A stretch of 64,000 bases of DNA, taken from assembly GCF_964204645.1 (NCBI RefSeq), contig NC_134026.1:29484150-29548149 (forward strand), in the 5' to 3' direction. The stretch is from Tubulanus polymorphus. Its lineage: Eukaryota; Animalia; Nemertea. Positions 3,204 to 48,527 of the stretch are shown in pieces. The first letter of the stretch is position 1. Every line of letters begins with the position of its first letter. The position numbers and the translations under genes are program-made. The notes beneath the pieces are model-generated. The model was given only the letters and a program-made list of their open reading frames with translations. It did not search any database and had not been told where the DNA came from.

Positions 3204-3551
3204 TTGTTTTCACCAGTGTTTACGATGATCGACCATCTTTCTGAAGATCTTTAAAGTAATTTGAATTCTAACAGTTTTTTACACTGTCGGCTCACAGACT
3301 TAGAAACTGGTTTACCTCATCATCAGAGTTTAGACGCCGACAATTTTATCACTCCTTAAGTGGAGTAATATAATCAAGTCACTAACAATTCAGTTTATGT
3401 CAAAATTTAATTGTCAATTCAAGAAGGGAAAGGAGGGGAAGGCAATAAACCTCAATATCACCCCAGCCTTAAGTCACTTACAATTCAGTTTATGTCACAA
3501 TTAACTTGACAATTCAAGAGGGGAAGGGAGGGATCACTAAATCTCAATTTT

Positions 3552-5500: not shown

Positions 5501-5599
5501 TAATGTGTAATTTAATAATGTAATTATGTAATAATTCATGATGTAATAATGTTTAATGTAATAATCTTTATTTTAATAATGTTTAATGTAATAATTCAA

Positions 5600-6445: not shown

Positions 6446-6544
6446 TAACAACTTTCAGTTGCAAGGAACCAAAATGAAGCTATCAAACAATAGCATATTT
6501 GAGTATAACACTTTTAAAATCAATAATGTGATAATAATTTGCTG

Positions 6545-7945: not shown

Positions 7946-7959
7946 ACAAAACTCGCCAA

Positions 7960-10745: not shown

Positions 10746-11200
10746 TGATTTAGCACTCATTCACCCACAGTGTTTTGTAACACTTAACTTTCATCACCAC
10801 CATTGATTTAGCAGTAATTCACCCACAGTGTTTTGTAACACTTAACTTTCATCACCACTAATTGATTTAGCAGTAATTTCACCCACAGTGTTTTGTAACA
10901 CTTAACTTTCATCAACACCAATTGATTTAGCAGTAATTCACCCTCAGTGTTTGGTAACACTTAACTTTCATCACCGCCAATTGATTTAGCAGTAATTCAC
11001 CCTCAGTGTTTTGTAACACTTAACTTTCATCACCACCAATTGATTTAGCAGTAATTCACCCTCAGTGTTTTGTAACACTTAACTTTCATCACCACCAAAT
11101 GATTTAGCAGTAATTCACCCTCTGTGTTTGGTAACACTTATCTTTCATCACCAAATGATTGCGTAGTAATTAACCCAATTTCAGTGTTTTTGAACACTAA
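10746..11200. repeat. 59-bp satellite, second block, about 7 copies
   Basis: Same unit and orientation as 3552-5500. Confidence 0.95.
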
Positions 11201-22092: not shown

Positions 22093-22865
22093 CTATTGTG
22101 TTCGCCGACGTTTAACCATTTGAAATTTACCTTTAAATGCCCCTTCAACATCGCGGAGCATTCTTATTGGATCTTTAAAATCGATGTTACGAGACCAACC
22201 AGGGCCGCGCGCGATAAGCTCGACAGCGGGGGAAGGTGGTGCCCCCGCTGGAGCGCCCGATGTCGAAGCCTGGGCGGGCGTTACAAAAATATCATTATCA
22301 TCATCTTCTTCTTCATCTTCTTCAAGTGCTCTTTTTTTAGTTTGTCTTTTCTTACTCTTAGTCTTAGATGGCGGTGGTGGAGGTGGTGGAGGTGTTGCGT
22401 GAAGTGGTGGAGGTGTTGCGGGCCCTGGTGGTGGTGGTGTTTGCGCTCCAGGATTGGCGAGATCCTCATCACTGCTCTCCTCTTCAAAGTTGAGCTGTTT
22501 CGGTGGAAGAGGATGAGCGGCACGCTTGCCTTTCTTTTTTGTTTTCGGACGCCCCGTACCTATTGCGTAATTTATATCTTTTGTCTTTCGACGGGGCGAC
22601 CGACGCAGTGAAGGCGTCTGAAGCTGTGGCGCCTCTGTCGGGGTCACCACTGCAGGGGCGACCTCCTGCTCCACATTTACGGGAGAAGCAGGGTCCACCT
22701 CCTGCAAAGGAACCAACTCAAATGGTGGAATTATTTTAGGAGGAGTTGGCTCCTTAGGCCCGCAGATATTAGTAACGCACCTTTTGTAAACGTTTTTCAA
22801 TCCCGGAAGTGCTCTGCGGGCTGCTTCAGACTGATCTTTTATTATATTTTGAATTATATCCAAAT
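22093..22865 (-). CDS. Terminal coding exon of an orphan Pro-rich, basic and acidic protein (probably nuclear and largely disordered)
   Basis: GC-rich 256-codon open frame in an AT-rich background; strong acceptor (T12)CATTCCAG immediately upstream, phase 1; contains LRRSPRRKTKDINY, poly-Pro, KSKKRQTKKR and EEDEEEDDD; the 'M' in the ORF track is a TTG. Confidence 0.6.
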
Positions 22866-25800
22866 CTGGAATGAAAAAAAAAAAACATTAAGGATCATGC
22901 ATATTACACATAAATGACATGTTCGCATATAATTATCATATTTGTAAATAGTTACCTATAAAATAATGCAGTTATCCAATAGGTGAATGTGATGTGATGG
23001 AAAAAACGAAGAGTTGGGTAAGAAGGGTCATTTGAACGTTTGGAAGCGATTGTAAGCTTATTTTGCGAGAAGTGATCATGTCACTGGTTGTACAATACGG
23101 TTGTACAACTAACTCTGTTGTAACTACACTTTTAACCCCTTTTATGATTTGCATCATCCATTACATAATAACGATTAGTCGACAGTATATTATCAATGAG
23201 GCTGATGATTGAATCTTTCAATTCACATTTTATAAATGTCTTATATACTTACATATTTCAGAACCAACCCTGTACGTGGACGGGTACACTTTTGTTAATC
23301 CATTAATGGAACTACTGATTGTAATAAATTACATCCTACCATTACCTTGACAATCAATTTTGGTAGCAAATCATGAATCAAAAATACACTTGATTTTTTT
23401 TCTGGGGTGATGATGTACCAGGTTCCAGGTGACAAAAACTATACATTATAATGAATGGAATTGTTACCCATGACCCTGGTTTCAAAATCTGGGAACCCCT
23501 TTGGAATAACACGCATGATAACTTTTCATTTATCAACCAATTGAAGTGGAAACTTTGCAACGATAAAAGATCTAATTTAAAACAACAGATGTCGCGCTGT
23601 ATCAACAAAAAATTAATTGATAATTCCTTTTATTCAGTAATTACTTTTCAAATGGACGAGTGAAAAATGAGTCCAAACTTCAGAAATGTATTCAATTATT
23701 TTGTAGAACACTTTTTTATTGTATACAGGGCCACACTCCATCCACGGTAAGTGGGAGAACTTGCATTTCATTTCCTCTGAACATGAGGCAAGTGTGTACA
23801 TATTATATTTTCTTCTGAATTTTCTCAAAAATGAAGATAAAAATATGACTGATTTTTTTTAAATTTTATTGTTTAAACTATTTACAGCATGAATTAAAAC
23901 AGAAAAACGACACAAATAATTTCACTTCGCTGAATCTAAAACCAGTAAAAACCATTTCACACAACACTGCCCACTACTGCACCTTCAGAAACAACACTCG
24001 CTACAAATAAAATACATTCATTTTGAAGAACAATATTTCACTATCAACATAAATGGCTGTAATTCATTTTTCCCAATCGAATATTCATTGTCAGCAATAG
24101 GCCTATTGGTACTCCACATATTCATTACATAACTCACCTAGAATGTATAATTCATCGTACAGCAGCCATTCATTTATTCAGATCAACAAAATTCCATGCA
24201 CAGCCATTTCAGCTGATATTCATCATACAGTAGCCTCCGCCTAAACTGCTACAGTTTGGCACCTTCTATTTTTTGACGCCTTATAAAACGTTACCATTAT
24301 GAAACCTAAACAATGCTAACCATTCAGCGTCATTTTACAAACGACAACCGTAAATCGATGTGCAAAACGTCACAGGTTTATGTGTACACATACAAGCTAT
24401 TTGGCAAAATATTATTGATAAAGATGTAGAATGGCTCCCTGTGATTATATAATGACCTCTATTTGAACGTCGGAATGTTATATTGCATTGAATATCATGA
24501 GAAGACGTATTGTAATAGTAAATGATGCATGATTATATCAGGAGCGGCAGGCTTGAATAGAAATGATAAGTAAATCGGATTATTCGGTTAAATGGCGGAT
24601 GTATACACGATTTGGAAGTCTGATATAAAAGTCAGACCCTGTCATGGGGATGCTAGTGGAATGACGAAGCTATCTACGATCTGAGTAGGGCCGGCGTGAA
24701 TTTCATCGGCGGCTACAGCGGTCTATATAAAAACGTGTAAACATATAATTTCAATATTCAGATGTTTTAGAAAATATGTTCGATATTAGGGGTATGCAGG
24801 TTTCATGAGATTAGCAATTTATAATAGCATAGCTGTCATATACGGCTCCGCGTCCACTGATGGCATGTGTATAAGGTGACAATTCAATTCAATACTTTAT
24901 TGATCCTTATTACATTGAAATTCCGGGATAAAATTCCCAAATTCAATAAAGTTACAAATTTTAAACTAAGAAAATACAAAATACAAGATACATGGGTAAT
25001 TCATACAGAATAACATGAATAAGTTATTTAAATGACAATGTCTACTTCAACCCAGACTCAAGTCTAGGATATCGAGTGACAGCCAAACCGGGCCCCGGGA
25101 CCGGGCCGGCTGGCTACACGATATGCTCGAAGTCATGATGAAGCAGACATCAGAAGAGCTCTTTCTTCAACCATGGAGGCAATGAAGTTGCAGACCAGCT
25201 TAGAGGCAAAAGTCAATCGAAGTCGGTCACAAGTTGACAATTGTTTTTTAAATTAGACCAGTCGAAGACTGTATCATCTACCCAATCGCCAAATCTCATA
25301 ATTCCCCAAATTTCTTAAAACTTCGATTTCAAATTTGCAATTCCACATTAGCTTATCCCAGAAATTCTACATTTTTTCGCAGGCGTCAAATAATTTATTA
25401 AAGTTAATTTTCTTGTTTACCTTATTAGGCACCGGTTTTTAAGAATTGCAAAAATCAATTGATTAAAAGATTTATTGAGCCAAATAGCGGTCAAAATTAT
25501 CAAGTTCTTTGTATTCTAAACAAATCTGACCATGTAGTGAATCCCCAAATTTCTTCTATAACTCTTTCAGAGCCCAGTCCACTTTCGTCTACAGATTATT
25601 TCAGGTCGTACTGCGCCCTGTCGACTTTCGTCGACATTTCTTATAGCAGTTTTATTTTTAGTTTTTCGCATAGAATTCAGCAGAGAACCTGCGGCTAGAC
25701 GGCTTGATTAAATGGCAGCGCCCGTTAGTTTGTTTTTATGCTGCGTTTTTGTGGTGTTGCTATTCAAAATCATTGAGTTTTTTTGCGTTTGAAAGGTCAC

Positions 25801-26415: not shown

Positions 26416-27379
26416 ATCGAACAGAGCAATATACCATAAAAGGCAAAACATATGTATCGAAAAACAACATTTCATCTTCATTTCATCGAATTGAACAGAT
26501 TATACCAGGTATAGACCGTCTACCAGTTTAAGTGAAGTCTACAGTATCATTAAGGGCAAAAAATCCATCAAAATGCGATACGTTTGAAAATATGTTTTTG
26601 TAATATGAATTTTCACCGAATTTTATTTCGAAAAATTGTGATACACAGTATTTCCTTAGAGTACTGCACATTTCCATATGGTTTTTGCTAAGTAAGTCTA
26701 GTTCATTTCCATTTCATGACAAACAGAAAAAGGACACAAAAAATTTCATTCAAATTTCTTCTGTATTTTCTGTATTTTCATCATCAATCAAAAAACTTAA
26801 ACTTTTACTTTCAGAAACAACTGCCGGGGTAAGATCCATTTCCCTCGACACTGCCCGCTGCTGTACAATCATGCTGTACCTTCAGAAACTACCACTAGGG
26901 GTGCAAACCATTTCGCACGACACTGTCTGTTGCTGTACCTTTAGAAACAACCACCAGGGGTAAAAACCATTTCACACGACTCCGTCCACTGCTGCAACTT
27001 CATACAATCAAATCCATTCACTACAAATTATAATAAGATTTTTGTCTATAAAAATCAAACGTCATTAAACAGCGAACAATAAACGATATTTAGAATTAGG
27101 CCTATATCACATGAATTCATTAAGTATTTCAAATAATCACTACTTACCCTTCAAGTATAGAATCATTCAGTGGAATAATTCACTATAAATACAGCTGCAG
27201 TTGTTTACAGAAAAAACAATATGAAATGTCCTTGTCGAACTTGTAAGGTGTAAAACAGGATAGACCTAGATAAATGTCAGGCCTGGATAACGGTAGAGGA
27301 AATACTTTTTATGGCTGCAAGAAAATAAAAGAATTCTGAAAAATAAAACATTAAGTCAAAGGGTAGGCCTATCTGAAGA

Positions 27380-27430
27380 CATCCTCGCTTGCCAGGGGTC
27401 CGGTATCACTCCCAAACTCGCTTCCACCAG
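27380..27430 (+). repeat. 51-bp dispersed direct repeat, copy 2
   Basis: 2 mismatches to copy 1; followed by CCCCTGGC, which can pair back with GCCAGGGG. Confidence 0.9.
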
Positions 27431-28637
27431 CCCCCTGGCTTCACGACGCGTGATTTCATTACTGGCGCTGTTGCGCATGACGTCATATATCGACTTGCGA
27501 AATACTTCCTTGTTCGCTGATTGGTCCATTTATCAGTAATTCCAACAGAAGCCTACACTGTAAAAACTAAGAACGCAGTGAACATACTGAGAACACTGAA
27601 ATAAGGTGTTCCCGAACACTTTTTAATGAATTTGGAACATCATCGAGTGTTCTAAGCTGATTTAAGTGCAAAAGCTCGTTCTGATGAACGCTGAGAACGG
27701 CTATGGAACGGCAAGAACACACCGATCACTCCACTAGAGCGTACGTGACTTTTCAAAGCGTTCTAGCACGCTTCACTGCACCTCGCTGACTGTGGAGAAT
27801 CATCTTTAGTAAGCTTTTGTATTCTTGATCTTATAATATTAATCGGCATTCATTGGAAGTAATTATGTCAGATCATGTAGGCCTAAACAAACAGTGCATT
27901 TCACAGCCGGCGTAGGCCTAATACGCGCCACGATGCGCCATAAATGCAATGAATGAATGCGGCAGAAAATCTTTTGGCGGAGGCCTCCACCATAACTGCG
28001 AGCTAAGTGAAGCCACATTTTTTCAGACAATTATTAGCGGCCGCTGCCTTGTGAATTAAAGTTTTATACCAAAAAATATTTTCCTCGGTGACTCCGCGCT
28101 GTTAATCAGGGCAGGGATCGAACCTATGAACTAAAGCTACAATCTCGCTCAAGAAAGTGAATTTGATTGATTTGACTTTTCTCAAGGTCGTTGAGCTTAA
28201 GCTGTCTGCTAAAAACGAACAGTCGCCAAAATTCCACATTCATTGCCTTAAGAAATTATAATTCGAGGCCTTTACGGGTATGATAGTTTACATCTCTGTA
28301 GGCCTAAATAAAAAGATAAAAGCTGCGGTGCATTTTATTGGCATGATGATATACTGAAACTGTGTTATTTTTCTTTTCAGTTTCTTTGCCGTTCAGCCAT
28401 GCCCATGCAACGATATATTGCATTCCAAGATATTACTAGTTTTACGCGCATACTGGAAATTTGCTCTTATTTGAATTTTGACGTCAGCGATGAAGTGATT
28501 GATAGCCACTTTACCATATGCTTTTTTAACATAGGACAGTGCAACCTGATCCAGAATATTTGTGCCTATTATTTGATCGAATATCAAGTCATAAATACAA
28601 CATTATCGTTGTAGAATCAGTACAGTAGAGAGTAAGT

Positions 28638-31169
28638 ATGGTCTATACTTGTAACTTATGTAACTTTTTTTCAATAAGCAATGATGATTTTAAAAATCAC
28701 ATCTTAAGAAAACATAGAAATGATCCACATTTCAAAATAACGTGTGATGCCTGTGGTGCCACCTATCATAATTATTTTTCATATCGTAGTCATTTTAAAC
28801 GCCACCATGCCCATAGGGAAGAAGTTGACCATGAACCCGATGACATAGACCTACCAGAACCGCAAAATCTCCAAATAGGCCTAAATGATGATCCTAGACC
28901 TGACTTAGGCCTGGTGGAACATGATATTCAACAAAATCAAAATGAACTCAATGTTGCAGCAGTTGACCAACTGAAAATGAGTGCTGGGCAATTCATTCTA
29001 AAAATGAGAGCTGGCCATAAAATAAGTGCAAGAGCAACCTGTGAGATGCTTGAAACAGTCAGCCAGTTTACTGAAATTGTTTCTGAGTGTACTCGTGATA
29101 ATATTCTTAGATTAGTTCCTGGACTGAATGAAGAACAAAAGAATTTGATTACTCATTACTTTGCTGAAAAACAGGATGTATTTGCTGGGCTTCAAAGTAC
29201 TTATATGCAGAACAAGTTCTTTAGAGATAATTTCTCTTTGGTTGAACCTGTGGAAATAGTGTTAGGTCATTATTTCAAAAAGGTCAAGGTTAAAGGTAGA
29301 TATATTTTCAAGAAAGTCCCTGCTCTTGGCTATTTTATACCATTATTAGAAACTCTTAAATCAATTTTGAGTATACCTCAAGTAAAGAATTGTGCCAATA
29401 TAAGTCATGCTAGTGAAGATCAATACATGCGAGACATGTGCGATGGTACTTATTTCAAAAACCATCCTCTGTTCAAAAAAAACCCGAATGCACTTTGCCT
29501 TCTTGCATACTGTGATGATTTCGAGCTAGCCAATCCGATTGGAACTCATGCCAAATTGCATAAAATAATCATATTCTATGTAGTTGTATGCAACATTCCA
29601 CCTGAATTACGATCAAAATTGCCAGTAATTCATCTTGTAGCTGTTACACTGAGAAAGTATATTGTTGGTCACAGGGACAGGCTTCAAAAGCTTCTTAAAA
29701 ATTTTGTTGATGATCTAAACACTCTCTATGATGGGTACACATTCATCTTACCCTCCGGCATATATCGTACTAATGGGACTTTATTGGCATTCACTGGAGA
29801 TACGCCTGCAGCAAATGAAATTGCTGGCTTTAAAGAAGGGGTTGGTGGAGCCAGCAAGCCTTGCAGACTTTGTGATATTCATAAGAATGACATGAATGCT
29901 ATATTCTGTCCCTCTGACTGCATGATGCGAGAAGAAGTTGAACATAGAGAGAGGTGTAATTACCTGAAAGAACTTAGTAGGGCTGATAGGCTTCTAATGA
30001 GTAGTGAGTATGGGATAAATAATGATTCTGTGTTGCAAGGTATCAATGATTTCCAGATAACGAAGTGTTTTCCTATGGATGTCATGCATGTACTACTGGA
30101 AGGAATTTGCAATTATGAGACCAAATTATGTCTTCGACATATGGTATCTGATAAAAACATGAATGTTAGTGTTCTAAACAACTGCATAGCAAATTACAGC
30201 TATTCTGAACTTGAAATGAAAGATAGACCTCAACCCATAGATAGAAAAACTCTTTTTGGTAATGGAAAACTAAATCAAACGTCTGAATCTATGCGGATAT
30301 TAATGTATCATTTGCCATTCATTTTGAACGCTATGAACATACTAGATGATAGAGATGAGTATTGGAGTAACTGGATACGTCTTCAAAAGATAACTATTCT
30401 GAGTTTATCCCCTATTATATCTGATGAAACTATTGCATTTATAGATATATTGGTTGCAGTACACAACAGAAAATTCGTAGAGATTTATCCCGATGAGAGC
30501 TATACGCCCAAATTGCACTATATGGTACATTTGGGGGATCAGATGCGAAAATATGGTCCTCTGCGCACACATTGGTGTATGCGCTTCGAAGGGAAACATG
30601 GTTTTTTCAAAAAGATGAAATGGAACAATTTTAAGAATATTGCTCTAGTTATTGCGACAAAGCACCAGCAGTGGCTTTGTCTTCAGCAACTCGGGACGGA
30701 TGGGCAAAGATCCATGTGTTTCTTAAATGACGAAGATGACATAAAATTTGGGCACATAATGCATGAAGACGAAGACCATTTCAATGATATAATGACATAT
30801 TTAGTACGTGAAACACATAGATTGCAGATAGGTCCTTTGATGATAAGCCCAAAGATCGTCGTACATGGTCATATTTACATGCCTGACAACATTCTCCTTT
30901 TAGAATTCGATGAAGATGAATATCCCGTATTTTGTAAGATTACTAAGATTGTAGTTGTTCAGGAAGAGAAATACTTGCTACTTGATAGGTTTTTAGTCGA
31001 GAGGTATGATTACACTCTCAATGCTTATGAGCTTCGAGAGGATCACTCTTGTAGTAGAAATAAGATCTTGTCTGTTCAGGATCTCCAATTCCCTTGGGTA
31101 CTGCCCCAAAAATGCTTTGGTTATAAGAGATATGTTTTACTTTGCTATAGTCCTCTCGTAATGTTGTAA
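28638..31169 (+). CDS. CMC/EnSpm-type DDE transposase with two N-terminal C2H2 zinc fingers (843 aa, intronless)
   Basis: CxxC..HxxxxH twice at the N-terminus; YCDDFE..NPIG, GDTPA..CRLC, DVMHVLLEG, TPKLHYMVH and GPL..WCMRFEGKH match the D, D, CxxC, H(3-4)H, E signature of CMC transposases. Confidence 0.92.
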   Translation: MVYTCNLCNFFSISNDDFKNHILRKHRNDPHFKITCDACGATYHNYFSYRSHFKRHHAHREEVDHEPDDIDLPEPQNLQIGLNDDPRPDLGLVEHDIQQNQNELNVAAVDQLKMSAGQFILKMRAGHKISARATCEMLETVSQFTEIVSECTRDNILRLVPGLNEEQKNLITHYFAEKQDVFAGLQSTYMQNKFFRDNFSLVEPVEIVLGHYFKKVKVKGRYIFKKVPALGYFIPLLETLKSILSIPQVKNCANISHASEDQYMRDMCDGTYFKNHPLFKKNPNALCLLAYCDDFELANPIGTHAKLHKIIIFYVVVCNIPPELRSKLPVIHLVAVTLRKYIVGHRDRLQKLLKNFVDDLNTLYDGYTFILPSGIYRTNGTLLAFTGDTPAANEIAGFKEGVGGASKPCRLCDIHKNDMNAIFCPSDCMMREEVEHRERCNYLKELSRADRLLMSSEYGINNDSVLQGINDFQITKCFPMDVMHVLLEGICNYETKLCLRHMVSDKNMNVSVLNNCIANYSYSELEMKDRPQPIDRKTLFGNGKLNQTSESMRILMYHLPFILNAMNILDDRDEYWSNWIRLQKITILSLSPIISDETIAFIDILVAVHNRKFVEIYPDESYTPKLHYMVHLGDQMRKYGPLRTHWCMRFEGKHGFFKKMKWNNFKNIALVIATKHQQWLCLQQLGTDGQRSMCFLNDEDDIKFGHIMHEDEDHFNDIMTYLVRETHRLQIGPLMISPKIVVHGHIYMPDNILLLEFDEDEYPVFCKITKIVVVQEEKYLLLDRFLVERYDYTLNAYELREDHSCSRNKILSVQDLQFPWVLPQKCFGYKRYVLLCYSPLVML

Positions 31170-31237
31170 ACTGCTGTTGTTTTTATAGATTTTATAGAAG
31201 GCTAGGTCACTGGATGTGGTGTGTCTGTCAGAAACTA

Positions 31238-31398
31238 CAGTGGAACCTCGTTACTTCATGAGACCAGAAAATATGTTCATTATAACTGATATATTTTGAA
31301 TCCAGTATGAAAAATTATAGGAGGTCAAATTATCCCATTTTGAACAGTTTGTAATAACCGATAAATCGTTATATCTGATGTTATAACGAGGTTCCATG
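31238..31398. mobile_element. Tc1/mariner-type MITE between the two transposon genes
   Basis: TA|CAGTGGAACCTCGTTA ... TAACGAGGTTCCATG|TA. Confidence 0.7.
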
Positions 31399-31530
31399 TA
31401 TATCCAACTATCTGACTACTCCTTTAATGCTAGAATTTTTGTGGAAATATTTCTTATTGCTTAGGTAAACTGTCCGTTTGAAAAAGCAAGGTTTTCAATC
31501 TCACACTGACAGTGTCAGCTTTATTAAAAT

Positions 31531-34500
31531 ATGTGTTCGGTCGACAACAAAACCACACTTCATCGGTGCATAAATTCAGCAGGAAACAAAGTTTTCTTGA
31601 TCGCGTCATCACTAAAAATGTTAAAAGATAAAGGTATGTAAGTCGATATTTGGTATTATGTAGTTCAAGTTCAAGTTCATGTAAATATACTGGTTTATTT
31701 AATCTTGTATAACAATATTTTTGGTTGTTTAGCTACGAAATGGTTATCTTCAAGTGAAGATGATCCACCGTCAGTGTACACCAGCGATGGAACTGAGATC
31801 TTCGACGAAGAGGTGTTTGAGGTGATTTCACAAACTGATACGACTCTCCTCATATTAAAGTCTGGTGAAACTCTGATCAATTATGGTGAGTATATAGGCG
31901 TATATATTCTTAGAAATGGTGAATCATCAAATTATCGTAGTTGTTTTAACTAATTATAATTCAATTATAACTTTTATTAGACGTCCATAAGAGTACTCTT
32001 CAACCTGATTTATCTTCGTCAACTGATACTGACATCAGCTCAGAAAGGTCTGATTTCATTGATTCGGAGGAATCGGCATCAATTGTGAGTATATCTTTTA
32101 TATACTATCAATTATAACAGGGTTCCTACAGCCCCTCAAATCCCTCGAATAACCCTCAAATTTAGAATTGGTCATGTAGCAAGCCTGTAAAATCCAATAT
32201 TTAAAGGAATTACCAAAACTAAGCGCTGATGTGGTGGATAAGCTATCAGCCTCTGCATCAGCTGCTGCCGCCGTTTGGGATGAATGTGTGACTCAAATGG
32301 CATACGGTTTACTCAAGAGACCCGAGGGAATCTCGACATCAAGACAATATACAGAGGCATGCCAAGAACTCATAAAAAGATATCCCAATTTGGCCAGAAT
32401 CTCAGCTGGTAAAGTTACAAAGCCTTGGGTAAGTAATCATTATATGATATTATAATTACATTATATTATATTATAACCTTTAACTATTTGCATATTAATC
32501 TAAAACTTGGAATTTCAATGAAAAGTGATAGTTCATATCTCAAGTTGGATTCATCGAAGCAAAATCCTGAAATGTTTTTAAGGAAAAAGACTAAATACCG
32601 GTATATATGTTATAATTTTTAGCCCACTTGGCCGAAGGCCATTCGGTTAGTCCCTGTGGTTGGTTGCACAGTTTTGATTTAAGTCCAAAAGTTGTCTTAA
32701 ATTTTAGAAGTGATCTTAGGTTGTTAGATTGGCTATAGAACTTAGTTGGTCTTAAGTCTAAGCCGTGACTATGCAACCGGCCCTGGGTCTTAGTGTGGTC
32801 TGGCGTGCGTGTGTCATATTTCTTGTGAACGCTCTACAGACCACAGTTTTTGGCCAATCGGCTTTAAATTCACATATATTGTGTATGACCAAAACATCTC
32901 GGAGGAGTTTTATATTTGTATTAATTGGATCCAAGATGGCTGATTGGCGGCCATCTTGGTTTCTGAAATGTGAAATGAAATGGTCTATCATATGACCAAA
33001 CAAGGTCATCATATCATCCAATATGGCCGCCTGGTGACCATCTTGGTTTCTGAAAATGCACAATTTTGATATTACCTGATATAATATTCCATGTAGATCT
33101 TTCATATTTCATATGAGAATGTGAAATAGAAGGGTCTATCATATGACCAAACTAGGTCTTCTTAGCACCTGTCCTATTGTGCTTAGATTTTGTTTGATTA
33201 AGGTGGCTTTTAAGAAATCGTTAAGTATGAAAGTGAGACACATTCGGCACTACAGAAAGAAGAGAGATAATACGTCAGCTAGCAGTAGTTACAGGAAGGC
33301 AGTTAAGGTTTCAGGTAATTTTATGAAATAATAGTTTAGTCGTACATGTATGTATTATTAATGAAATATGGTATGATATTAAAACAGATGAATCTGTTTT
33401 AGCTTGCCGTGGTTTGAGTCGGGAGTCTCCGTCGTCGCCTGTTGGTGGTTTAGACGAAGACCGGAGTTCTTTCACAGCTGTTAAAGCGTCAGGTATTTAT
33501 AAAATGAATAGTTCGTTGTTGTTCCTGATAAAATTCCAATCAAATTACCGCATCTAATTAGATGAGTCTCTTTTAGGTCGTTGTGGTTTGAGTCGGGAGT
33601 CTCCGTCACCTGTTGGTTTTTTAAACGAAGGCTGGAGTTCTTGCGAAGCTGTTAAAGCATCAGGTAGTTATAAAATGAATAGTTCGTTGTTGTTCCTGAT
33701 AAAATTCCAATCAAATTACCGCATCTAATTAGATGAGTCTCTTTTAGGTCGTTGTGGTTTGAGTCGGGAGTCTCGGTCACCTATTGTTTTTTTAAACGAA
33801 GACTGGAGTTCTTGCGAAGCTCTTAAATCGTCAGGTATTTATAAAATGAATAGTTCGTTGTTGTTCCTGATAAAATTCCAATCAAATTACCGCATCTAAT
33901 TAGATGTGTCTCTTTTAGGTCGTTGTGGTTTGAGTCGGGAGTCTCCGTCACCTGTTGGTTTTTTAAACGAAGGCTGGAGTTCTTGCGAAGCTGTTAAAGC
34001 ATCAGGTAGTTATAAAATGAATAGTTCGTTGTTGTTCCTGATAAAATTCCAATCCAATTACCGCATCTAATTAGATGAGTCTCTTTTAGCTTGCCGTGGT
34101 TTGAGTCAGAAGTCTCCGTCACCTGTTGGTTTTTTAAACGAAGACTGGAGTTCTTGCGAAGCTGTTAAAGCGTCGGGTAGTTATCTGAAATAATGGTTTA
34201 GTTGTATATATGATTGACGAAATTCTATTCAGATTATGGTATGATATTAAAACAGACGAGTCTCTTTTAGTTTGCGGTGCTTTGAGTCAGGAGTCTCCGT
34301 CGCCCGTTGGTGTTTTAGCTGAAGACCTGAGTCCTTCTGAAGTCTCAAATAGTGGTAAGAATGATTCCAAAGTATATGAAATGTATTAATGTGAATTGAG
34401 TTCAGATGCCTCTTTTCTTTAATCTCTTAGACCAAGCTGACCTTGCTATGTTAGGAGAAAAGCGATTGTTGGACCGACCAAAGATATTCAAACTGATGAA

Positions 34501-36024
34501 GGCCACACTAGCGCAGCGTCGACAGGAAATAAGAAATTCAGGCGATATACTTTTCTTCATGCAAAAGTATAAATTTTTTCAACATTTAGATTATGTGAGT
34601 GCAAATATCTTTGATTTTGAAATTTCCACATCAAATAAGATTTATTTGGTTGTAAAGTTTGTTTTGGATATTTTTAGATTTTCGAGGAATTTCATTTGAT
34701 GGGATATGCAAGGGACTTTCTACATAATTTTTCTCAGAGATATGAATCAATGTTAGAAAAGTTAGCCACTTTGGCTATGATGAATGGAGATATTAGCGTA
34801 AGTCGCCTAGCCCGATTGATGTTGATTTTTTAAATTACGAAGTACACTTTGAAGAGTTCTGCTTGGATAATGTAATCCTGCTATTTTCATCTGTAAGCTT
34901 CAACATTTTGTCCATGTTTCAACACATGGCTAAATCTATATAGCTGCGTTCACACGACAACTAGTTAGACCGGTCTAAATCGGTCCGCACTGGGCCCACA
35001 GGATGTCGCCATGAGTATTTTACCCCAAAATTTATGTAAATGATCATAGATTTATGATTCCCTGGCAGTTTTTTATTTGAACAATTTTGACGCAGTGTAC
35101 CATATATCTGGACACATCAACCTATAATAGATTCTAGGTATTTTCCAGAACAATTTATAGGGATATCTATTCAACTATCAACATACGCTGAGATTTTAAG
35201 ATAAATAATAATCCGTTAGCGTACACATTAATTTTAGGTAGTAAAGAAATTATATGAAATCTTAAAACTATATTAATAGGCTTGATAAGTAATTGCTGAC
35301 GATACAATTGAATTGATATTGCAGAGTACGATTTAGACCGGCTCCTAGTACCAGTTTCTCTCCACGGCACACACACAGATTTAGTTCTGTCCTAATTTAG
35401 ACCCATCTTAATAATGTCGTCTAAACGCGCCTATACAGTATATGTATTCTAAACCTACGTATTTATCATTCTAGGAGGATCAGCATCAGATTGCTTTGAT
35501 TGAGTTTGTACACAAGGAAACAAGCTACAATTATTCACGTTGTATAATTTCCGTTGTTGACGTAAGTTCATTTGCCTAAGCTTGAGCTAATTATGAAAAT
35601 ATCTGGTACTTAAAATATTTCTGGTATTTAAAACATTTCTCTGACTTGAATTTAAGGATAGTCAAAATCTCATACAATGTTTTTATGGTTACAGTATTGG
35701 TATTTTTAGGAAGTGGACTTTGGAAAGACCAGCAATTCAGAAAATTCAGCATTCCCAAGTATTGTTGTGGTTGGTGATGGGGTATCGTATGCGCAATATT
35801 TTCTTTCTATCGGAACAGTGCTTATCGATTGTACCACCTACAAAGATCTATCCGGAATCAAGTTAGCATTACTGGCAACACTGGTATTGTACTACATTTT
35901 TGACCTGAACTATCCGAGACCTTTCAAGGAGTCCCTATCATTCTTTCAGGCAGTTCTATTTCAAGAAAATTGTCGTAAAGGCAATAGAACGGCCAAATTA
36001 TTCAGCCATTTTACATGTAGTTAA
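31531..36024 (+). CDS. Transposon second gene (TnpA-equivalent, SAMD3-like C-terminus) with an N-terminal CIDE-N-like domain; 15 exons, about 633 aa
   Basis: GT-AG exons in consistent phase with no stops: 31531-31633, 31733-31885, 31981-32084, 32207-32428, 33203-33314, 33403-33492, 33577-33663, 33748-33834, 33919-34005, 34090-34176, 34271-34354, 34431-34594, 34678-34797, 35475-35561, 35710-36024; motifs LIKRYP, LMKATLAQRR and YYIFDLNYP..LSFFQ are typical of the accessory ORF of animal EnSpm elements. Confidence 0.8.
32615..33170 (+). mobile_element. Non-autonomous Helentron/HINE-like insertion in an intron of the second gene
   Basis: Starts TTTTTAGCCCACTTGGCCGAAGGCC; short (GCGT) tract; internal CCAAGATGGC..GCCATCTTGG palindromes. 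Confidence 0.5.
33403..34354 (+). repeat. 171-bp tandem array, each unit one 87-nt exon plus an 84-nt intron (6 exon copies)
   Basis: TTTTAG|..GGTTTGAGTCGGGAGTCTCCGTC..TCAG|GTA repeated; every copy is phase 1-1 and stop-free. Confidence 0.85.
34940..35435. mobile_element. Old MITE (PIF/Harbinger-like ends) in an intron
   Basis: Imperfect TIRs TATAGCTGCGTTCACACGAC ... GTCGTCTAAACGCGCCTATA; internal TTAGACC/GGTCTAA motifs. Confidence 0.5.
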
Positions 36025-36079
36025 ATAATACATGTAGTTGAATTCCTGGAAAATCCAGCCTTGGTAAACTAATGAGTAG

Positions 36080-36318
36080 TTTGAGTAAAAATACAATATT
36101 AGAATTGAAATCTGACAGTGAGATTTAAAAGATCAGTTTGGTGGAGCAGATTTTGTGGCCTTTTAAAGTGAGAAGGGTCAGTGTGATTCTACGAGGCATT
36201 CATTAATTCATTCATCCTGACCCTACTCACTTTAAAAGGCCACAACATTTGCTCCACTTAGGCGATCTTTAATTTCAGGGTCAAATTTCATCTTCAATAA
36301 TAATTTTTCACTAAAACT
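36080..36318. repeat. Long imperfect inverted repeat just downstream of the second gene's stop codon
   Basis: GTGGAGCAGATTTTGTGGCCTTTTAAAGTGAGAAGGGTCAG pairs with CTGACCCTACTCACTTTAAAAGGCCACAACATTTGCTCCAC; pairing continues outward. Confidence 0.8.
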
Positions 36319-36599
36319 GTATGCTATAAAACTACATTTCTGTATAGGCGGTAACTGTTAGGAATTTCATTTCAGGGGATATGTAAGGGATTTTCTAAGT
36401 GATTTTTCTCAAAGATATGAATCAATGATTGAAAAGTTAGCCACTTTGGCTTGGATGAGTGAAGATATTATCATTTAGATGAACTAGAAAATGCGCATTC
36501 AGAAAAGAAATAAACCTGGAAAATCGGCAGAATTTTGAATTTGCTTGAACTATATATGCTCTTCTTTGATTGTGTTTTTATTTCACGCTTAAGGCTGAA

Positions 36600-36985
36600 C
36601 TGTTCAGATATATTATATTATGTTTTTTAGTGATGCAGACTGAGATGGTCAGATATATATTTTACCATGTGAATGACATGTACTAATGCAGCTATTAAAA
36701 GGCAGCATTCTCTTAAAAAGAGCGTGTATGTATTTGATTTACGCTTATTGTGGCCAAATACATTGGTTAAGGATTTTGATTCAATGGAGTTTGTGCACAA
36801 AGAAACCAGATACATTTTATTATGTTTTTTAGTGATGCTGACTGAGATAGTCAGATATATATTTTACCATGTGAATGACATGTGCTAATGCAGCTATTAA
36901 AAGGCAGCATTCTCTTAAAAAGAGCGTGTATGTATTTGATTTACGCTTATTGTGGCCAAATACATTGGTTAAGAATTTTGATACT
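36600..36985. repeat. About 198-bp direct duplication, 2 copies
   Basis: TATTATGTTTTTTAGTGATGC...CATTGGTTAAG repeated near 36617 and 36818. Confidence 0.85.
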
Positions 36986-37504
36986 TCCTTTTTGACAATT
37001 TTAATTCAAAATAATAAAATTTTGGATTTCAAGATTAATCTCATCTTTTTGGTTTTTCTGCCGGGAATGTGTTGAGTTTTGCAATGTTCCCTCAGGTGTT
37101 CCGGAGTTCTACAAGTGTGTTCCCAAAAGGTGTTCTTGCAGTGTTCCCACTGGTGTTCCAGAGTTCTAAGAGTATGTTCCCAAAAGGAGTTCTCGTAATG
37201 TTCCCACAAGTGTTCCATGATTTAAGTGTTCCAAAACTCTACTCAACTGAAAATGTTCTAAGTAGTGTTCAAGATACGTTCTTAGTTTTTACAGTGTAAT
37301 ATCGTTTGTAACAAGCGCTGTGATTGGTACAACCGGATTCTGGTCAGCTAGTAACGACTCGTGAGGTCAAGGGATTCGGCGAACAGCTTTAGCGTAGTGG
37401 GTTCGAATCGCTTGACGGGTGAAGATTATCTGAAGAACAGCTAGAGGAAATTTGATAAAATCTGGTCTCAGAACGAAATGAATCACACAGTTCCATTACT
37501 GACT

Positions 37505-37715
37505 AAACTGTAATCCGGATACTGAGTAAACTGTGGTCCGGATACTGAGTAAACTGTGGTCCGGATACTGAGTAAACTGTGATCCGGATACTGAGTAAAC
37601 TGTGGTCCGGATACTGAGTAAACTGTCATCCGGATGCTGAGTAAACTGTGGTCTGGATACTGAGTAAACTGTGGTCCGGATACTGAGTAAACTGTGGTCC
37701 GGATACTGAGTAAAC
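37505..37715. repeat. 23-bp minisatellite, about 9 copies
   Basis: CCGGATACTGAGTAAACTGTGGT. Confidence 0.93.
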
Positions 37716-41725: not shown

Positions 41726-44700
41726 GACAACCGTGTACGTTACCGCCGAGTCCGGTTCCGTGTCCGTACAATCCGTACAACTACAAATGAATTTGATGAA
41801 ATAAGTTGTATATTCATAATCTTATTTTAACGTAAAATATCTTTTTATTCAATAACAGTGCAAAAAATACACATTAAAAACCTCTAAAAAATTTATAATA
41901 AATTTGAATCGAGTGATGAAATAAATTTGAATCGAGTGATACCACTACCGAATCCACAGTGCTCACTTCACGACGGTTTATTCTACGACGTGGATCGAAA
42001 ATTGGACGCGGAATCGGACCAATACAATACCATAGAACTTTATTGAACTCTAAAATCTTACAATTAAAAAAATTCAATAAAGTACAGACAGGTAAAAAAG
42101 AAAGTTACATGAAAATCATACAGTTCGAATATGCATGGTGATAATGGTTGTAATGAAATATAATCGAAGAAAATAATTCGATCAATGCGAGGTCGACCGG
42201 CCAGGGACCCGCGGGGACAGGCTTGCCCGGTCGTCACAATTGTCACAGGGACTCGTCACAATTGATTTTGAATGAATAAAACCAGAATCAATGACCAACC
42301 CCAGTATCCTTGTATAAAACATTTTTTTTTCATATTATACAGGGATTCTAGGCTAAGGTCATTGTACTACCTTTTATCCAAGTCACGGCGGAGTGTGGGA
42401 AAACCACCTAGTCCTTCCATGTAACGAAGATGATCCCACAATAAATCCAATGAAAAGACGAAATGTTCTTAGATGTGATTATATTTTTTCGGCTATTAGC
42501 CATTGTTCAGTTCTAGCTATCATCAGTCATTCTCGGGCCGTTTGCGAGTATTGGGAAGAGAAATGAAAACGTCCAACCCGTACATGCGATCTGGTATTCA
42601 GATTATAGGCATCATTGGCCTAACCTTCGGAAGCGTAATACTGGGGCCCGGAAAGTCAAACGTTCTGCTTTTCGAAAGTTCACTGAAAGTTTCCCTGTCA
42701 ACTCTTAGCTCAAACAATAGCCACGTTTTTCCGCAATAAACGTACTGACATGACTTTGCCACCGCACACGCTTTGTCACGCGTTCACGAGTCTCACTCGG
42801 CTCATTACAAACAGAATTTAATCCGTGTACATTAAGTGTGTAGTATGATTTTAAGAACATAAAGCCGGTTTAATCATTTACAATAGAACCCGGCCGGGGT
42901 CGGCGCCATAGAAACTCGTCAACGAAAAATAATTTCAATCGTTTCTAGAAGGTGATCAGTACCGCACTACTGTACGCTACTTATATCTACTTGTTTTTCG
43001 TGGCCGTTTTAGAAAAAAAATCGAAATACAACGAGGAGCACTTGATTGAGATATGGAACACGACAACATGAAGGAATAGACGTTTTACTACTTATCAACC
43101 GAACAGATAGAGACATTCAGAGAAAGATAAGAAACTAAAGGGAGTTAATTAAGGTAAAATTTATGGTGGAAACTACGATAAGCAAAAAATAACCAACTTT
43201 GAAATGTTCTGAAATATCATACGAATTTGATTATAAATCAAGTTCAATTTAAAGATAGTTTCGTAAATTTCTATTTTTTTCATTTTATTCAGAATGATGA
43301 TTCACGTCATGTAACTATTATTCCATGGTTAACATAGTTAAAAATCGGTGCCATGTTCGTATTTATTATCCACTCATTATTCATTCATTGAGATGGGGAT
43401 TTAATTGAACGTGTTTTTAAGTGGGCAACTGCGTTACTAATGACGATTTCACGATTATTTATGACGAAAGAAATGTCTCCTTTCTTTTTGAAAATACCCA
43501 TTTCCTTTCTTTTTGAAAATACCCATGAAACGAACTTTGCTCGGGAAAATTCGTTACCTGAGTAATGCAGACAATGTCTATATTCCAGTACAATATTTGT
43601 TCGTAATTCTAAGGTTTGAGAACAATCACTATTATTATTTAGGCTGGTTTCAAAAGCAAATACTTTATCATTGAACGAATTCTTATATTTCTCTTTCAAA
43701 TTAAGATCTTTAATTTCAATAATTGAAGCGCAAATATACTGCCAATCATTTCGAGCAGATTTCGTGGGAGAAAAACTTGCATTTTCAACGTTCATTTTCG
43801 AAAGGCCCCTTTCGTTTGCACGATACTTAGTTTTCAGAATAGTAATGTTAAAATTTAGGCAAGATCGCACGTAATTGAAAAGAGAAACTTAAAACTGGCT
43901 TTCGTTTTGATTTTGCTATCTGCTGGGAATACGATCGAAAATAAACAACTGAATTTAACGTATATTTGCTAAAGCGCGGACCCGGCTCGGTTGTGTAAAT
44001 ATAAAATCCATCCATATCGGCTGCCACGCGGTGTGGGCTGTATAGTGTCGTCTGTCATAGGCGTTCATAGCAACAGGTTGATGTTGCTGGTGATAGTAAC
44101 AATCTCAACTAAGTCACTGGTGGATATTGAAAAAAAATCACTCCTCACAAGCTCGTAGCGAGCCACCGCGCCAGAATAGAAGCTGTTCTATTTGTAGGTA
44201 ATGCGTTAATAAAGGTTGATACACGTGATGTAGTGACATTGAGTTTATTGCTAAATATGTGAGGTGACATTGGGAATGTATGCGCTGTTGACGGGATACA
44301 AAACATGAATAAAAAAACAGATGAGGGATTCTTCTTACCTAAACTAGCTGAAAAATATCAGGTATGAGGATGAATAAATCAGTAAGCAAACATATTGAAT
44401 TTTCATCAGAGGTTCAACAATATATGTGCAGATTTCTCAAAAGTTTCATTGTTGATGTCATTTTGAAATTATATTCAATTAACCAAAATGTTCCAAAATT
44501 AATTCTAATTCAAGCTCACAGTCAGTGTTATGCGCGGTTTTGTATAGACTAATGATGATTATTGTGTGATCCATTAAGCGCTGAAATGAACAGATCGGTA
44601 ATTTCCAGCCAGTAGATTATCACACGATAATTTCGTTGTTGTTGTTGTCGAGTCTCATCGTGTTTGTCACTTGGGGAATTGTTGCCATAACAAAGACAGG

Positions 44701-45604
44701 TCATTGTCATGATTTATTCCAAATTGATGGAATCGCCAATCATTTGTTATTACCATTTCATCAATCAACAATATTACTGAAATATAATTGCCATATCGTC
44801 AATTTCTGATTCATTTTATTGATCTACGTATTTAAACAACATAAGCAAACAAAGTCAAAAGCTTCGTATAATCATTGTATATGATCGTGTCCAATAAATT
44901 CTCAATTTCTTTTTTTTCGTACCAAAGTCCTTTGCAGGCAAAGGTATCGGTATGTTGAATTGTATCGATCATTCAGTAGTTTTACGTCTTTATTTTTTGA
45001 AAGGTTTTTAGGTTCAGTTTGGGGCTGTCGAATAAATCGTATATTGTTCATTAAGTCATTAAAACTTTTCGCGCAAGTCCCCACTCAAACGAAATAAGCA
45101 ATCATAATTTTGTAAGCTTCGCACAAACCACGCACAATCATACTCGATCAATTATCACTCAAAGAACACTTATATCGTTCCTCGCGAAAACCAGATTTTA
45201 GGTCAACGTCATTTTGTTTGGTGGTACCGCTTATGAAAGGTAATGGTTTTTTCCAATATGTAATTCTCACGACTTATTTAATTGGCTCATTTTTGCCCTT
45301 AGTCGCGCGTGAACGCGTAGGACAATACTGTTTCATTTGATAGCATGTTGGTATTCGAATGTGCAGAAAACGCGTATTATCGACGACTGTCAGACTGACT
45401 TCTGTGGAGCCATTTGACAACCGCTTCATTCCTACAAGATCGACTTAATTTGAAAGACGGACCATCGATCCGTATATATGAGAAACTGAAACTCCTTCCT
45501 TGGATAACTAATATTTTTGCATATATATTCTGCCGTCTCTTCAGTAGACTGCCATCTGGTGAAATATTTGTAAGAGTATGTTTCCCATCAGACCAGTGTG
45601 TATA

Positions 45605-45643
45605 ACCAGGGAAGTGTGATGTGTCTCATCACACTTCCCTGGT
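45605..45643. repeat. Perfect 17-bp-stem hairpin
   Basis: ACCAGGGAAGTGTGATG-TGTCT-CATCACACTTCCCTGGT. Confidence 0.85.
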
Positions 45644-45800
45644 ATAACTATGTTGAGTAAATGAGTACTTACTATACTACTATTTTGAATGATAACGGAT
45701 AGAGGCTCCTACCTGCCTCCTTGCACTCTCTTCAGACCTCAATGATTTGGGATAGTCTAAGTCTATAGTTAATCGATGCAAAATTTTCTTTCAGGACACG

Positions 45801-47230
45801 ATGAAGCCTGAACCGGTGACTGCAGGTCGTGAAGCAGTTTACGGTTGGTATCCCCCACAATGGAATATCTATAACAAACCGATCTACAAACAGTTAGCGG
45901 GTTACGGTACGTTTCAAGATAAAGCTGCATTTTTATTTACGTTTATGTACATTTCTAAAAGTGTATATATTGTGATTATTATTTCAGATCAAGAATGTTT
46001 GTTCAAACACTGGTACAGCGCGTACACGGGACAAAAAGTGCAAGCACCCGTCCCCCCAGGGGCTGCGCGTCCGTATAATTCAGCTAGTAAACCAGAACGT
46101 TGTTCTACAACTGCATCAGAAAGGTCACCTCCGCGGTCTCCAACACGATCGCGGCCACCAAAGTCTCCTCCTAAACTAAATGGTTCGCATGCAGTTGATT
46201 TGTCTGTCCAAGCTGTTGCAAAACCGTTACAAGAACACCCACTGTCTCCTAGAAGCAGCATTCGCGCACATGGACCAACAACTAAAGAGGCTTGGACTGG
46301 AATCCCAGATACACAAGAAAGTCGGCCATCAACGGCTTATAGTATAGAATCAGTGCGTGCTACACCGGCTCCTAGAATACCCGTTCCAGATCTCAGAGAG
46401 TATTACAACCTCTACGGTTCATCTTCGGTATCGTCCGAGGATGATACCTCTCCCCCGGTCAGCCCTAGCGAATCAACAATGCTAGATGTACCGGTATGTT
46501 CCACCCCCCCAAAACCTACCACAAAACCTGTTCGAGTTAAAAGCGCCTCGTTAGTTAGATCTAGTCCATCGCCGCCACCCAGACCAATAAAGAGCGCAGG
46601 GCCGAGTCGTTCTAGGGCCGCAGCAGTTGCGACTGAGCTTTCACGGCCTCAAGCTCCCACCCCAGGTCACCAAAAATCATGTCCATCTCCTAGAACATTG
46701 CGTGCAAAGAGTGCCCCGGCTACTGGACGGTCGTTACCAACAAATCGTGAGAAAAAGCGTCCAACAACGGCGGCTTTAAAGATTAAACCATATTTGTCGA
46801 CATACGATCTACAATTGAGTAAATATGGCTGGAGAATGGAAGTTCCGGCAGATCCATTAAATCTCAAGTGAGTTTATGTTCAAATCTTTACAACCAAATC
46901 CTAGGAAAGACGTTCTGATCTTTCCTTGATATGTCTGTGTATTTAATGCAGAATTTTCAACGTGATATTTATTTTCGTTTCAGGCGTCCAATTATAGCAG
47001 ATCGTCTCGCCTATGCGACCAAATGTACGGAACCGACTTTAGCCGGAGAACCACCGCGAGTTCATAAAGAATATTTCGACACGTTCTTTATGAATACGAT
47101 ACCACGACGTAAAGCAACATTCACAATCAGCCCTGATTGGGCATCTGAAGTGCTTCATGCAAAACGAATAGAACTTCAAAAACGAGAAGGAATCAATTAT
47201 AGATATAAAAACTTCTCATTTGCTTATTGA
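45801..47230 (+). CDS. Uncharacterised protein with a Pro/Ser-rich centre and a globular-looking C-terminus (3 coding exons)
   Basis: Exons 45801-45906, 45988-46867 and 46984-47230 join in phase with GT-AG; C-terminus KYGWRMEVPADP...TIPRRKATFTISPDWASE...GINYRYKNFSFAY. Confidence 0.8.
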
Positions 47231-48371
47231 AATTAAACTATATATTCCTAGCGAATGAGGGAAGACCCCAATATACTGGCAAAAACGTTCCCAATAAGAT
47301 GATTTCCACTTGGTTTAGTTGAGTACATAATGTTATATATAACTCACTTGGCGATCGAAAGAAATATTTTTCAAACTGCTATAAGATAAGTTATACAAGA
47401 AATAAGGTGTGCATGGGGAATAGGTACGGGGTTTTACTCGTGTTTTTACCATTCGTCTGTGATAAACCTGGAACATACAGGCATTGGGATAATACGGGTT
47501 ATACTTAGAATCTTTTCAAATACTAAGATGTATTTTCTGGACTCTACTCGTTTTAGATTCTAACTAACTCCTTTTAACTTTCACGAAACCTTATCGGTAT
47601 CGCACACGGATCGTTATTTTTTATAGCCATTACGTATACATATCTTATTAAGAACGGATATCTATCAGAATTGTGTATGTATATTATATGATATTCTATT
47701 TACTGAGTTAAATAATAAAGATAATTGTTACCTACGAAATGGTTGTTACGCCAAGATATATGTAATTCACATAATTCGCAGGAAATTACGAAGTCAGTCT
47801 AATTCGAATTCTTAATCTTCCAGTGGTTTGAGATGACGGTTCCATTTCAAATTTATACATGAAATATTCGACAGATGGAAAGCGCAAATTGCACGCAAGG
47901 TGATAATTGCATTTCGAAGGTTAGTTAATTATTAACGCGTAGTTTCCGTAGCTTCCAAAATGCGATGTTTAAGCCGAGATGCAACTTCAGAAGAAAAAGG
48001 TTGAGCGGATTTGAATTTATGAAGCTAGTTCAAAAATTTTGGAAAGAGCGTCTTCTTGAAAACATTTGGAAGAAATGCGATCAACACGTATTTTGACAAC
48101 GATGGACTAGAATTTATAGTAGAATAGTCACACTCAAATGTGGAGAAGAGGTGATATAACAAAAACCCAACATGTAAAAATTTAAAAGCAAAGTTTTTCA
48201 TCAAAGATTCCAAATCTAAGATCATCGCAAGCTGTTCATACTGTTGATAGGGACAAAAGCGTCACCGTCGCACAAGCAACTCAGTCTGTTCTTTCTGTAA
48301 TTAACCGAGTAGAGCGGAAAAACATTTTGGTGAGACAGAACGATAACCACACTCAAACGTGGTGAACGGAT

Positions 48372-48527
48372 AATAAGATAAAAACCCACTATCTACAGAT
48401 TAAAAGACCTGACGATGATCTCTAGGGTGAGATCGAAACGTCGTGTATTCTATATATTTTAGATTGAATAAATAAATTCTTGTTTTTAAATACTTTTAAT
48501 CTGTAGATAGTGGGTTTTTATCTTATT
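48372..48527 (+). mobile_element. Penelope-like pLTR remnant with a hammerhead ribozyme core, flanked by a 35-bp inverted duplication
   Basis: CTGACGA-T-GATCTC-TAGGGT-GAGATC-GAAAC at 48409-48439; AATAAA downstream; 48372-48406 is the exact reverse complement of 48493-48527. Confidence 0.65.

Follow-up and report, generated by a model that had tools for sequence, protein, structure and literature searches.

The transposon and its two genes

The window analysed here, a stretch of 64,000 nucleotides from the nemertean Tubulanus polymorphus (contig NC_134026.1, positions 29,484,150 to 29,548,149), contains a transposon of 9,741 bp at positions 27556-37296 of the stretch, bounded by perfect 20-bp terminal inverted repeats (TIRs) that start with CACTG. 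The transposon carries two genes on the plus strand, a single-exon transposase and a spliced second open reading frame (ORF2), which begins 362 bp past the transposase stop and whose first two exons encode a CIDE-N domain. The dinucleotide TA at either end is a target-site duplication, since in contigs of the high-copy repeat around the element exactly 9,743 bases are missing. The original prediction, made from the letters of the DNA only, had placed the domain on an accessory gene of a CACTA/EnSpm transposon that carries subterminal repeats. Both points were borne out, as ORF2 sits behind the transposase within the TIR-bounded element, and 13 copies of GAACAC lie within the terminal 460 bp, compared with two in the 9.3 kb between them. 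The features are collected in Table 1.

[quoted passage not shown] The motif order D, D, CxxC, HxxxH, E is that of the EnSpm-Mirage-Chapaev-Transib clade, in which target duplications measure 2-5 bp, with 3 bp in plants and in fungal EnSpm (PMC12730594). The strict plant CACTA end is absent, the TIR reading CACTG. Against Pfam, the transposase of the window gave only a weak match to DUF4218, and its relatives match Plavaka and Transposase_21. The catalytic roles of the transposase residues are suggested by the motif order. The element is a complete EnSpm/CACTA-type transposon with an intact transposase.

The number of copies was estimated from RefSeq accessions and contig depth. About seven loci were counted by RefSeq accessions, with ORF2 97-100% identical among them, and contig depth was 175-220 on the element vs 24-37 on nearby unique DNA, which agrees, though depth is not a copy number. 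The transposon family is young and recently multiplied, and this copy is intact. A very high-copy repeat surrounds the element (27000-27555 and 37297-37640) and another lies in ORF2 intron 4 (32505-32870), with a bin depth of about 42,000-52,000 in run X1.

Table 1. Coordinates of the transposon and its genes in the window (a point marks features to which no strand is assigned).
Feature	Positions	Strand	Remarks
Left target-site duplication, TA	27554..27555	.	Flanking-repeat contigs skip 9743 bases (element + 2)
Left TIR, 20 bp, perfect, starts CACTG	27556..27575	+	Contigs in runs X1 and X2 start at 27555-27556
Left subterminal region, GAACAC/RGAAC repeats in both orientations	27576..27775	.	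GAACAC 5 times in first 220 bp
Transposase, single exon, 843 amino acids (aa)	28638..31169	+	Two N-terminal C2H2 fingers; D293/D294, D388, C409xxC412, D481xxH484, H627xxxH631, E651
Alternative donor in the transposase	29295..29296	+	In RefSeq isoforms, transposase aa 1-220 run on into ORF2 (acceptor 31582/31583)
ORF2 exon 1: CIDE-N strands 1-2 and helix 1	31531..31633	+	Basic face, R12 and K20 kept
ORF2 exon 2: CIDE-N DGT loop, helix 2 and last strand	31733..31885	+	Acidic face D53, E56, D59, E60, E61
ORF2 exon 3: disordered linker	31981..32084	+	Rich in Ser/Asp
ORF2 exons 4-5 (32207-32428, 33203-33314): conserved helical middle domain	32207..33314	+	Long basic helix at end; candidate DNA-binding domain
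ORF2 exons 6-11: disordered Ser/Pro-rich repeats	33403..34354	+	Arose by tandem duplication of a 171-bp exon-intron unit
ORF2 exons 12-15: conserved C-terminal alpha/beta domain	34431..36024	+	Residues 409-638; common to the whole ORF2 family
Right subterminal repeats, minus-strand RGAAC every ~10-13 bp	37057..37276	.	15 RGAAC in last 240 bp, all pointing inward
Right TIR	37277..37296	-	
Right target-site duplication, TA	37297..37298	.	

The CIDE-N domain at the head of ORF2

A search with exon 2 returned two T. polymorphus RefSeq proteins at 100% identity, with P0003 (638 aa) in their cluster. The 15 ORF2 exons of the window translate exactly to this RefSeq model, and all of the 14 introns between them are bounded by GT and AG. 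Exon 1 opens with ATG and closes at a phase-1 GT donor, and the donor of exon 2 is likewise in phase 1. The peptide described in the original prediction is present in the sequence, spread over exons 31531-31633 and 31733-31885, and in the gene model these two exons are joined to the downstream exons as had been supposed. The splicing of the CIDE-N exons is predicted from the RefSeq models, the canonical splice sites and an intron that is conserved in relatives.

Exon 2 alone scored 22.5 bits (E 1.2e-4) against Pfam CIDE-N (PF02017), just below the gathering cut-off of 23.5 bits, and exon 1 alone had no Pfam match, whereas the spliced proteins P0001 and P0003 scored 34.7 and 31.7 bits, above the cut-off. 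The AlphaFold model, based on an 18-sequence alignment, contains a beta-grasp at residues 9-76 of P0003, with a predicted local distance difference test score (pLDDT) of 85-91 across most blocks (residues 11-60) and of 65 in one block. In a VIA fold search of 48,161 solved chains, ranks 1-6 were DREP3, FSP27, DREP4, ICAD, CIDE-A and DFF45 (Z 10.8-8.8, root-mean-square deviation 1.6-4.7, 73-87 residues aligned), and the top PB1 row (Z 7.9) ranked below all six. Foldseek also placed CIDE-N structures at ranks 1-5, but none of them reached E<=0.001. For the 130-aa P0001, the model was of low quality (pLDDT 50, with strand 1 unplaced), yet its five top matches were again CIDE-N (Z 6.2-7.1). These results confirm that exons 1 and 2 encode a true CIDE-N domain, as first proposed from the motif.

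At E<=0.1, CIDE-N was the only Pfam domain detected in P0003, with no DFF-C domain, and the remainder of the protein aligns to transposon ORF2s; a word-index search with P0003 returned only itself. A host DFFA gene lying inside the element by chance was rejected as an explanation, as DFF-C is missing, the ORF2 body follows the domain and several near-identical loci exist. The middle domain (residues 121-227) is all-helical in the AlphaFold model, and the fold-match lists of the whole protein were filled by CIDE-N. TnpA-like regulators are characterised by two tandem tri-helical HTH motifs that bind DNA. In the ESM Atlas, the middle domain was found in unnamed clusters only, plus one weak SAM-bearing cluster at 0.75. 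A second copy of ORF2 exon 13 was located past the stop (36362-36475, plus strand), which is the alternative last exon in the RefSeq isoforms P0002 and P0009.

Relatives, the N-terminal slot and the origin of the domain

Searching P0003 against 1.84 billion representative proteins gave 19 matches, 17 of them non-self, and CIDE-N was above the cut-off in five of the 17 (Solemya, Lottia, Saccoglossus, Lingula and an unnamed JGI protein). The UniRef name of the Lottia protein is 'CIDE-N domain-containing protein', without a transposon link. The Haliotis cluster member P0059 is a complete protein with CIDE-N (61.7 bits), middle and C-terminal domains. In Saccostrea P0039, a SAM domain stands ahead of the same ORF2 body (26.3 bits vs a cut-off of 20.5), and Mytilus P0038 aligns to P0039 across SAM. 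P0033, a repeat-region match, was excluded from the alignments.

The related proteins were assessed at the protein level, and linkage to a transposase was studied in the best 80 of 235 metagenome loci matching the transposase alignment, which was used to scan the contigs because the CIDE-N alignment was too variable. A transposase frame of at least 380 aa was present in 78 of the 80 loci, which were grouped into 51 families at 90% identity, and 30 of the 51 families had a same-strand ORF2 downstream. The N-terminal slot of these 30 linked families carried CIDE-N in six, SAM in five, neither in 19 and both in none. The SAM calls in the five families came from a two-sequence profile (E 4e-11 to 3e-5). 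All ten CIDE-N exon frames in the metagenome loci matched Pfam CIDE-N, five of them above the cut-off on their own, compared with 0/91 other frames (drawn from 231 candidates) with any match at E<=0.01. The splice sites are shared as well, since a GT follows Lys and one G in 7/7 loci with exon 1, same as in the window, and a matching phase-1 acceptor was found in 5/5 loci with exon 2. The transposase of the window is only about 30-33% identical to those of the elements that keep both CIDE-N and the intron.

No CIDE-N-bearing CACTA family had been known to the original prediction, and the six linked families indicate that the domain is not peculiar to this element. A capture specific to T. polymorphus was likewise rejected, with the same domain and intron occurring in distant families. 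We conclude that a CIDE-N-bearing variant of animal EnSpm occurs in more than one phylum, and that the module alternating with CIDE-N is SAM. The analogy first drawn with SAM or PB1 domains in related proteins held for SAM, which occupies the same slot in the five linked families and in two RefSeq proteins. For PB1, a candidate was seen by eye in a single protein, P0040 of Chelonus insularis, and had no match in Pfam, in the PDB or among the open reading frames of the loci. Residues 1-88 of P0040 contain an acidic motif that resembles PB1 by eye, and the middle domain comes after it in two copies.

Several other relatives were observed in the same searches. More distant elements (L016/L017, L021, L027/L043/L080, L030/L063/L067 and L079) have ORF2 upstream on the opposite strand, and several of these elements gave weak SAM-like matches. 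A conserved mollusc gene (P0028, P0032, P0046 and P0061, from cephalopods and Mytilus) has the ORF2 middle domain at its C-terminus and a different, shared N-terminus; it is possibly a domesticated ORF2 fragment or the host source of the middle domain. A second T. polymorphus transposase family (P0014, P0044 and P0045) is 44-46% identical to the family of the window and is its sister.

The history of the domain was examined in transposase and middle-domain trees. In the transposase tree (59 rows, relatives found here), the window belongs to a 39-row clade that contains every same-strand ORF2 family, with full support in the SH-like approximate likelihood ratio test (SH-aLRT 100). One clade (100) unites the six other CIDE families with two short loci, and a separate clade (100) is made up of the SAM families; the window and the second Tubulanus family lie outside both, in an open fork. 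In the middle-domain tree (101 columns), the CIDE-bearing rows form an unresolved grade. A single CIDE origin was not rejected by the approximately unbiased (AU) test on the transposase tree (37 of 59 rows; p 0.126), and the p values for the middle domain were 0.261 for 11 CIDE rows and 0.024 with four unlabelled rows forced in. A single old capture, followed by losses or replacement, is favoured by the shared intron, but the trees give no proof of it.

Introns 1 and 2 of ORF2 have phases 1-1. The phases are 1-1 in vertebrate Dffa, 0-1 in Dffb and, at the matching introns, 0-0 in Cide genes, and the internal phase-1 intron is dated from cephalochordates on (PMC2426694). A profile built from seven transposon-type proteins scored 54.7 bits for CIDE-A, 52.9 for DREP2, 49.1 for CIDE-B, 48.2 for CIDE-3, 36.7 for ICAD, 31.2 for DFF45 and 22-27 for CAD/DFF40. 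The intron phases and the profile scores together point to a DFFA-side (DFFA-like) host gene as the likely donor. The CIDE-N domain was probably acquired from such a gene in one ancient event, and it has drifted in this copy. Against this history, the transposase of the window clusters apart from the six other CIDE families, the AU tests at p 0.126 and 0.261 only fail to reject one origin, the p value fell to 0.024 with the four unlabelled rows, and the cephalochordate date of the intron fits poorly with a simple capture in lophotrochozoans.

Proposed function, rival explanations and known systems

CIDE domains assemble into head-to-tail filaments through a basic patch (K13, W15, R22 and K23 in DREP2) and an acidic patch (D56, E61 and E64); DREP2, DREP4, DFF40 and FSP27 are described as having both patches and oligomerising, and DFF45 as having the acidic patch only (PMC6292858). 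Of the relatives tested, 9/9 are basic at the sites equivalent to DREP2 K13, R19, R22 and K23, and in 10/10 domains tested the stretch of 13 residues around DGT includes 5-8 acidic ones. A homodimer prediction for residues 4-88, made without an alignment, returned a score of 0.00 and no verdict. SAM domains can also polymerise head to tail, and since SAM occupies the same slot, self-assembly is the simplest common function. By this analogy, we lean slightly towards the explanation that the CIDE-N domain of ORF2 is an exchangeable self-assembly module, acting on the transposon ends via DNA binding by ORF2 itself. Neighbouring CIDE-N domains would join head to tail, basic to acidic face, and the helical middle domain would bind DNA. 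The resulting chain would assemble cooperatively along the subterminal GAAC repeats, which lie close together, and could there help to pair the ends or switch the element on, like TnpA in plant Spm, an activator of its element that binds to subterminal motifs (bioRxiv 10.64898/2026.08.24.746577).

Several observations weigh against self-assembly on the ends. The copy in the window fails the basic-patch pattern that the nine relatives meet: R12 and K20 are kept, but the equivalents of W15, R19 and K23 are absent (register by eye), and one acidic position is occupied by Phe (by eye). Haliotis P0059 also lacks one of these residues (by eye). Neither module was found in 19 of the 30 families, so the lineage as a whole does not depend on it. 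The profile of the middle domain had 0 matches among PDB sequences, so we can only infer that this domain binds DNA. In addition, according to a survey of Spm elements, animal transposases typically contain the Spm DNA-binding domain as a fused part, and TnpA-like proteins seem to be confined to flowering plants (bioRxiv 10.64898/2026.08.24.746577).

The eroded basic face, the long branches and the fact that this CIDE-N is the most diverged of the set would agree with a fading passenger, a domain that is still folded but that this element does not need, as would the absence of a recognisable module from the 19 families. We consider such a passenger unlikely, as a recently multiplied family has kept the reading frame, the splice sites and the fold intact, and the domain and its intron persist where the transposases have diverged to about 30-33% identity.

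The strong acidic and weakened basic face of this copy resembles DFF45 as well, which bears on the second role raised in the original prediction, engagement of the host apoptotic DNase. Here CIDE-N would bind the host DFF40/DFF45 pair and damp apoptotic DNA fragmentation after the breaks made by transposition. The profile, which is nearer to the DFFA/CIDE side than to DFF40, is in line with this, and a precedent in a mobile genome exists in the CIDE-N proteins of betabaculoviruses, for which such a role is itself speculation (PMC5245865). However, the slot is occupied in five families by SAM, which is unconnected with the DFF system, both faces are kept in the relatives, and P0003 lacks the inhibitory DFF-C domain (Pfam). 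Engagement of the host DNase is therefore a weaker explanation than self-assembly and, in our view, an improbable one.

A further explanation keeps self-assembly by CIDE-N and transfers the DNA binding to the transposase, whose own N-terminal C2H2 fingers could be the binder of the repeats. The zinc fingers would target DNA, and the isoform that fuses transposase aa 1-220 to ORF2 would be the analogue of TnpA, co-polymerising with plain ORF2 on the ends. The RefSeq models of two loci (LOC141913286 and LOC141913836) use donor 29295 and acceptor 31583 and skip the catalytic core, and alternative splicing is reported to separate the DNA-binding domain from the transposase in Spm elements (bioRxiv 10.64898/2026.08.24.746577). 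The fusion nevertheless loses strand 1 of CIDE-N, which is at best replaced by a Lys-rich stretch of the transposase, and the isoform is one predicted in gene models. A G-GTRR donor near the matching codon was found in one of six CIDE families, against a background of 108/694 windows, and is not conserved. We regard a TnpA-like role of the fusion as doubtful, and self-assembly combined with DNA binding by ORF2 itself remains the explanation that we prefer.

In the literature searched, with Repbase and subscription journals outside the search, no publication was found on CIDE-N in transposons or on SAM or PB1 on animal EnSpm ORF2, nor did that literature yield a tested function for the second protein of animal EnSpm/CACTA elements. 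CIDE, SAM and PB1 are absent from the main text of a survey that covered 962 Spm protein structures, although its supplements may list them (bioRxiv 10.64898/2026.08.24.746577). We propose tentatively, at somewhat less than even chances, that an animal EnSpm lineage in nemerteans, molluscs, brachiopods and hemichordates took a filament module of the apoptotic DNase system, and that it uses CIDE-N and SAM interchangeably to polymerise a helper protein along the subterminal repeats. If true, the animal EnSpm ORF2 would function as a polymeric scaffold at the ends of the element, and many of the 'extra' CIDE-N genes of invertebrates would be transposon rather than apoptosis genes. For example, two Hydra species have 10 and 7 CIDE-N genes vs 1-3 in other cnidarians, an excess left unexplained (PMC7642931 Table 2B), of which transposon ORF2s may be the source. 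Caution is needed with Pfam CIDE-N counts in invertebrate genomes, which include transposon genes. These results widen the range of CIDE-N beyond apoptosis, lipid-droplet and baculovirus proteins, and two unrelated head-to-tail assembly folds that alternate in one ORF2 slot make its function directly testable in an intact, recently multiplied element.

The window contains other features apart from the transposon. An open frame at 56493-57482 (plus strand) encodes about 30 repeats of KR-PFGPITD or KR-PFGPISYAD with dibasic cleavage sites and looks like an exon of a neuropeptide precursor, with repeats that presumably resemble pedal peptide/orcokinin. A proline-rich, basic open frame of 264 aa lies within a GC-rich patch at 22093-22887 (minus strand), and 3457-10800 is taken up by large tandem arrays whose units measure 59, 153 and 159 bp.

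Compared with plant En/Spm (CACTA) elements as described in PMC4158355 and bioRxiv 10.64898/2026.08.24.746577, the Tubulanus element agrees in its TIRs, which start with CAC, in its subterminal repeats, in the C(2)C and H(3-4)H motifs of its DDE transposase, in the presence of a second spliced gene and in the modelled alternative splicing between both genes. It differs in ending with CACTG instead of CACTA, in a 2-bp (TA) instead of a 3-bp duplication, in its single-exon transposase with C2H2 fingers, and in its ORF2, which has no detected likeness to TnpA and carries CIDE-N. The fungal EnSpm-like ESTA elements, compared by their published description, share the CMCT-type motifs and the TA duplication but are described as a separate lineage from rust fungi (PMC12730594).

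The animal EnSpm ORF2 proteins with SAM (Saccostrea P0039 and Mytilus P0038) share the helical middle domain, the C-terminal domain and, in the metagenome families, the position behind the transposase, whereas in Tubulanus the beta-grasp CIDE-N replaces the helical SAM and extra Ser/Pro-rich repeat exons are present. We take 'SAMD3-like' to be a database label for such SAM-bearing ORF2 proteins.

ORF2 resembles the host proteins DFFA/ICAD, DFFB/CAD, CIDE-A/B/C and Drep1-4 in having PF02017 above the cut-off, a matching fold (Z 8.8-10.8) and the DGT motif, and it resembles vertebrate Dffa in its intron phases 1-1 (PMC2426694). Unlike these host proteins, it has no detected DFF-C, nuclease or CIDE-C domain and is multi-copy within a transposon, and the signature VDDxxYF of Dffa reads IFDEEVF in ORF2. 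The CIDE_N open reading frames of betabaculoviruses offer a further case of a mobile genome carrying CIDE-N; those described are mostly stand-alone proteins of 91-111 aa (PMC5245865), whereas in Tubulanus the domain is the head of a 638-aa transposon protein, in a slot where CIDE-N swaps with SAM.

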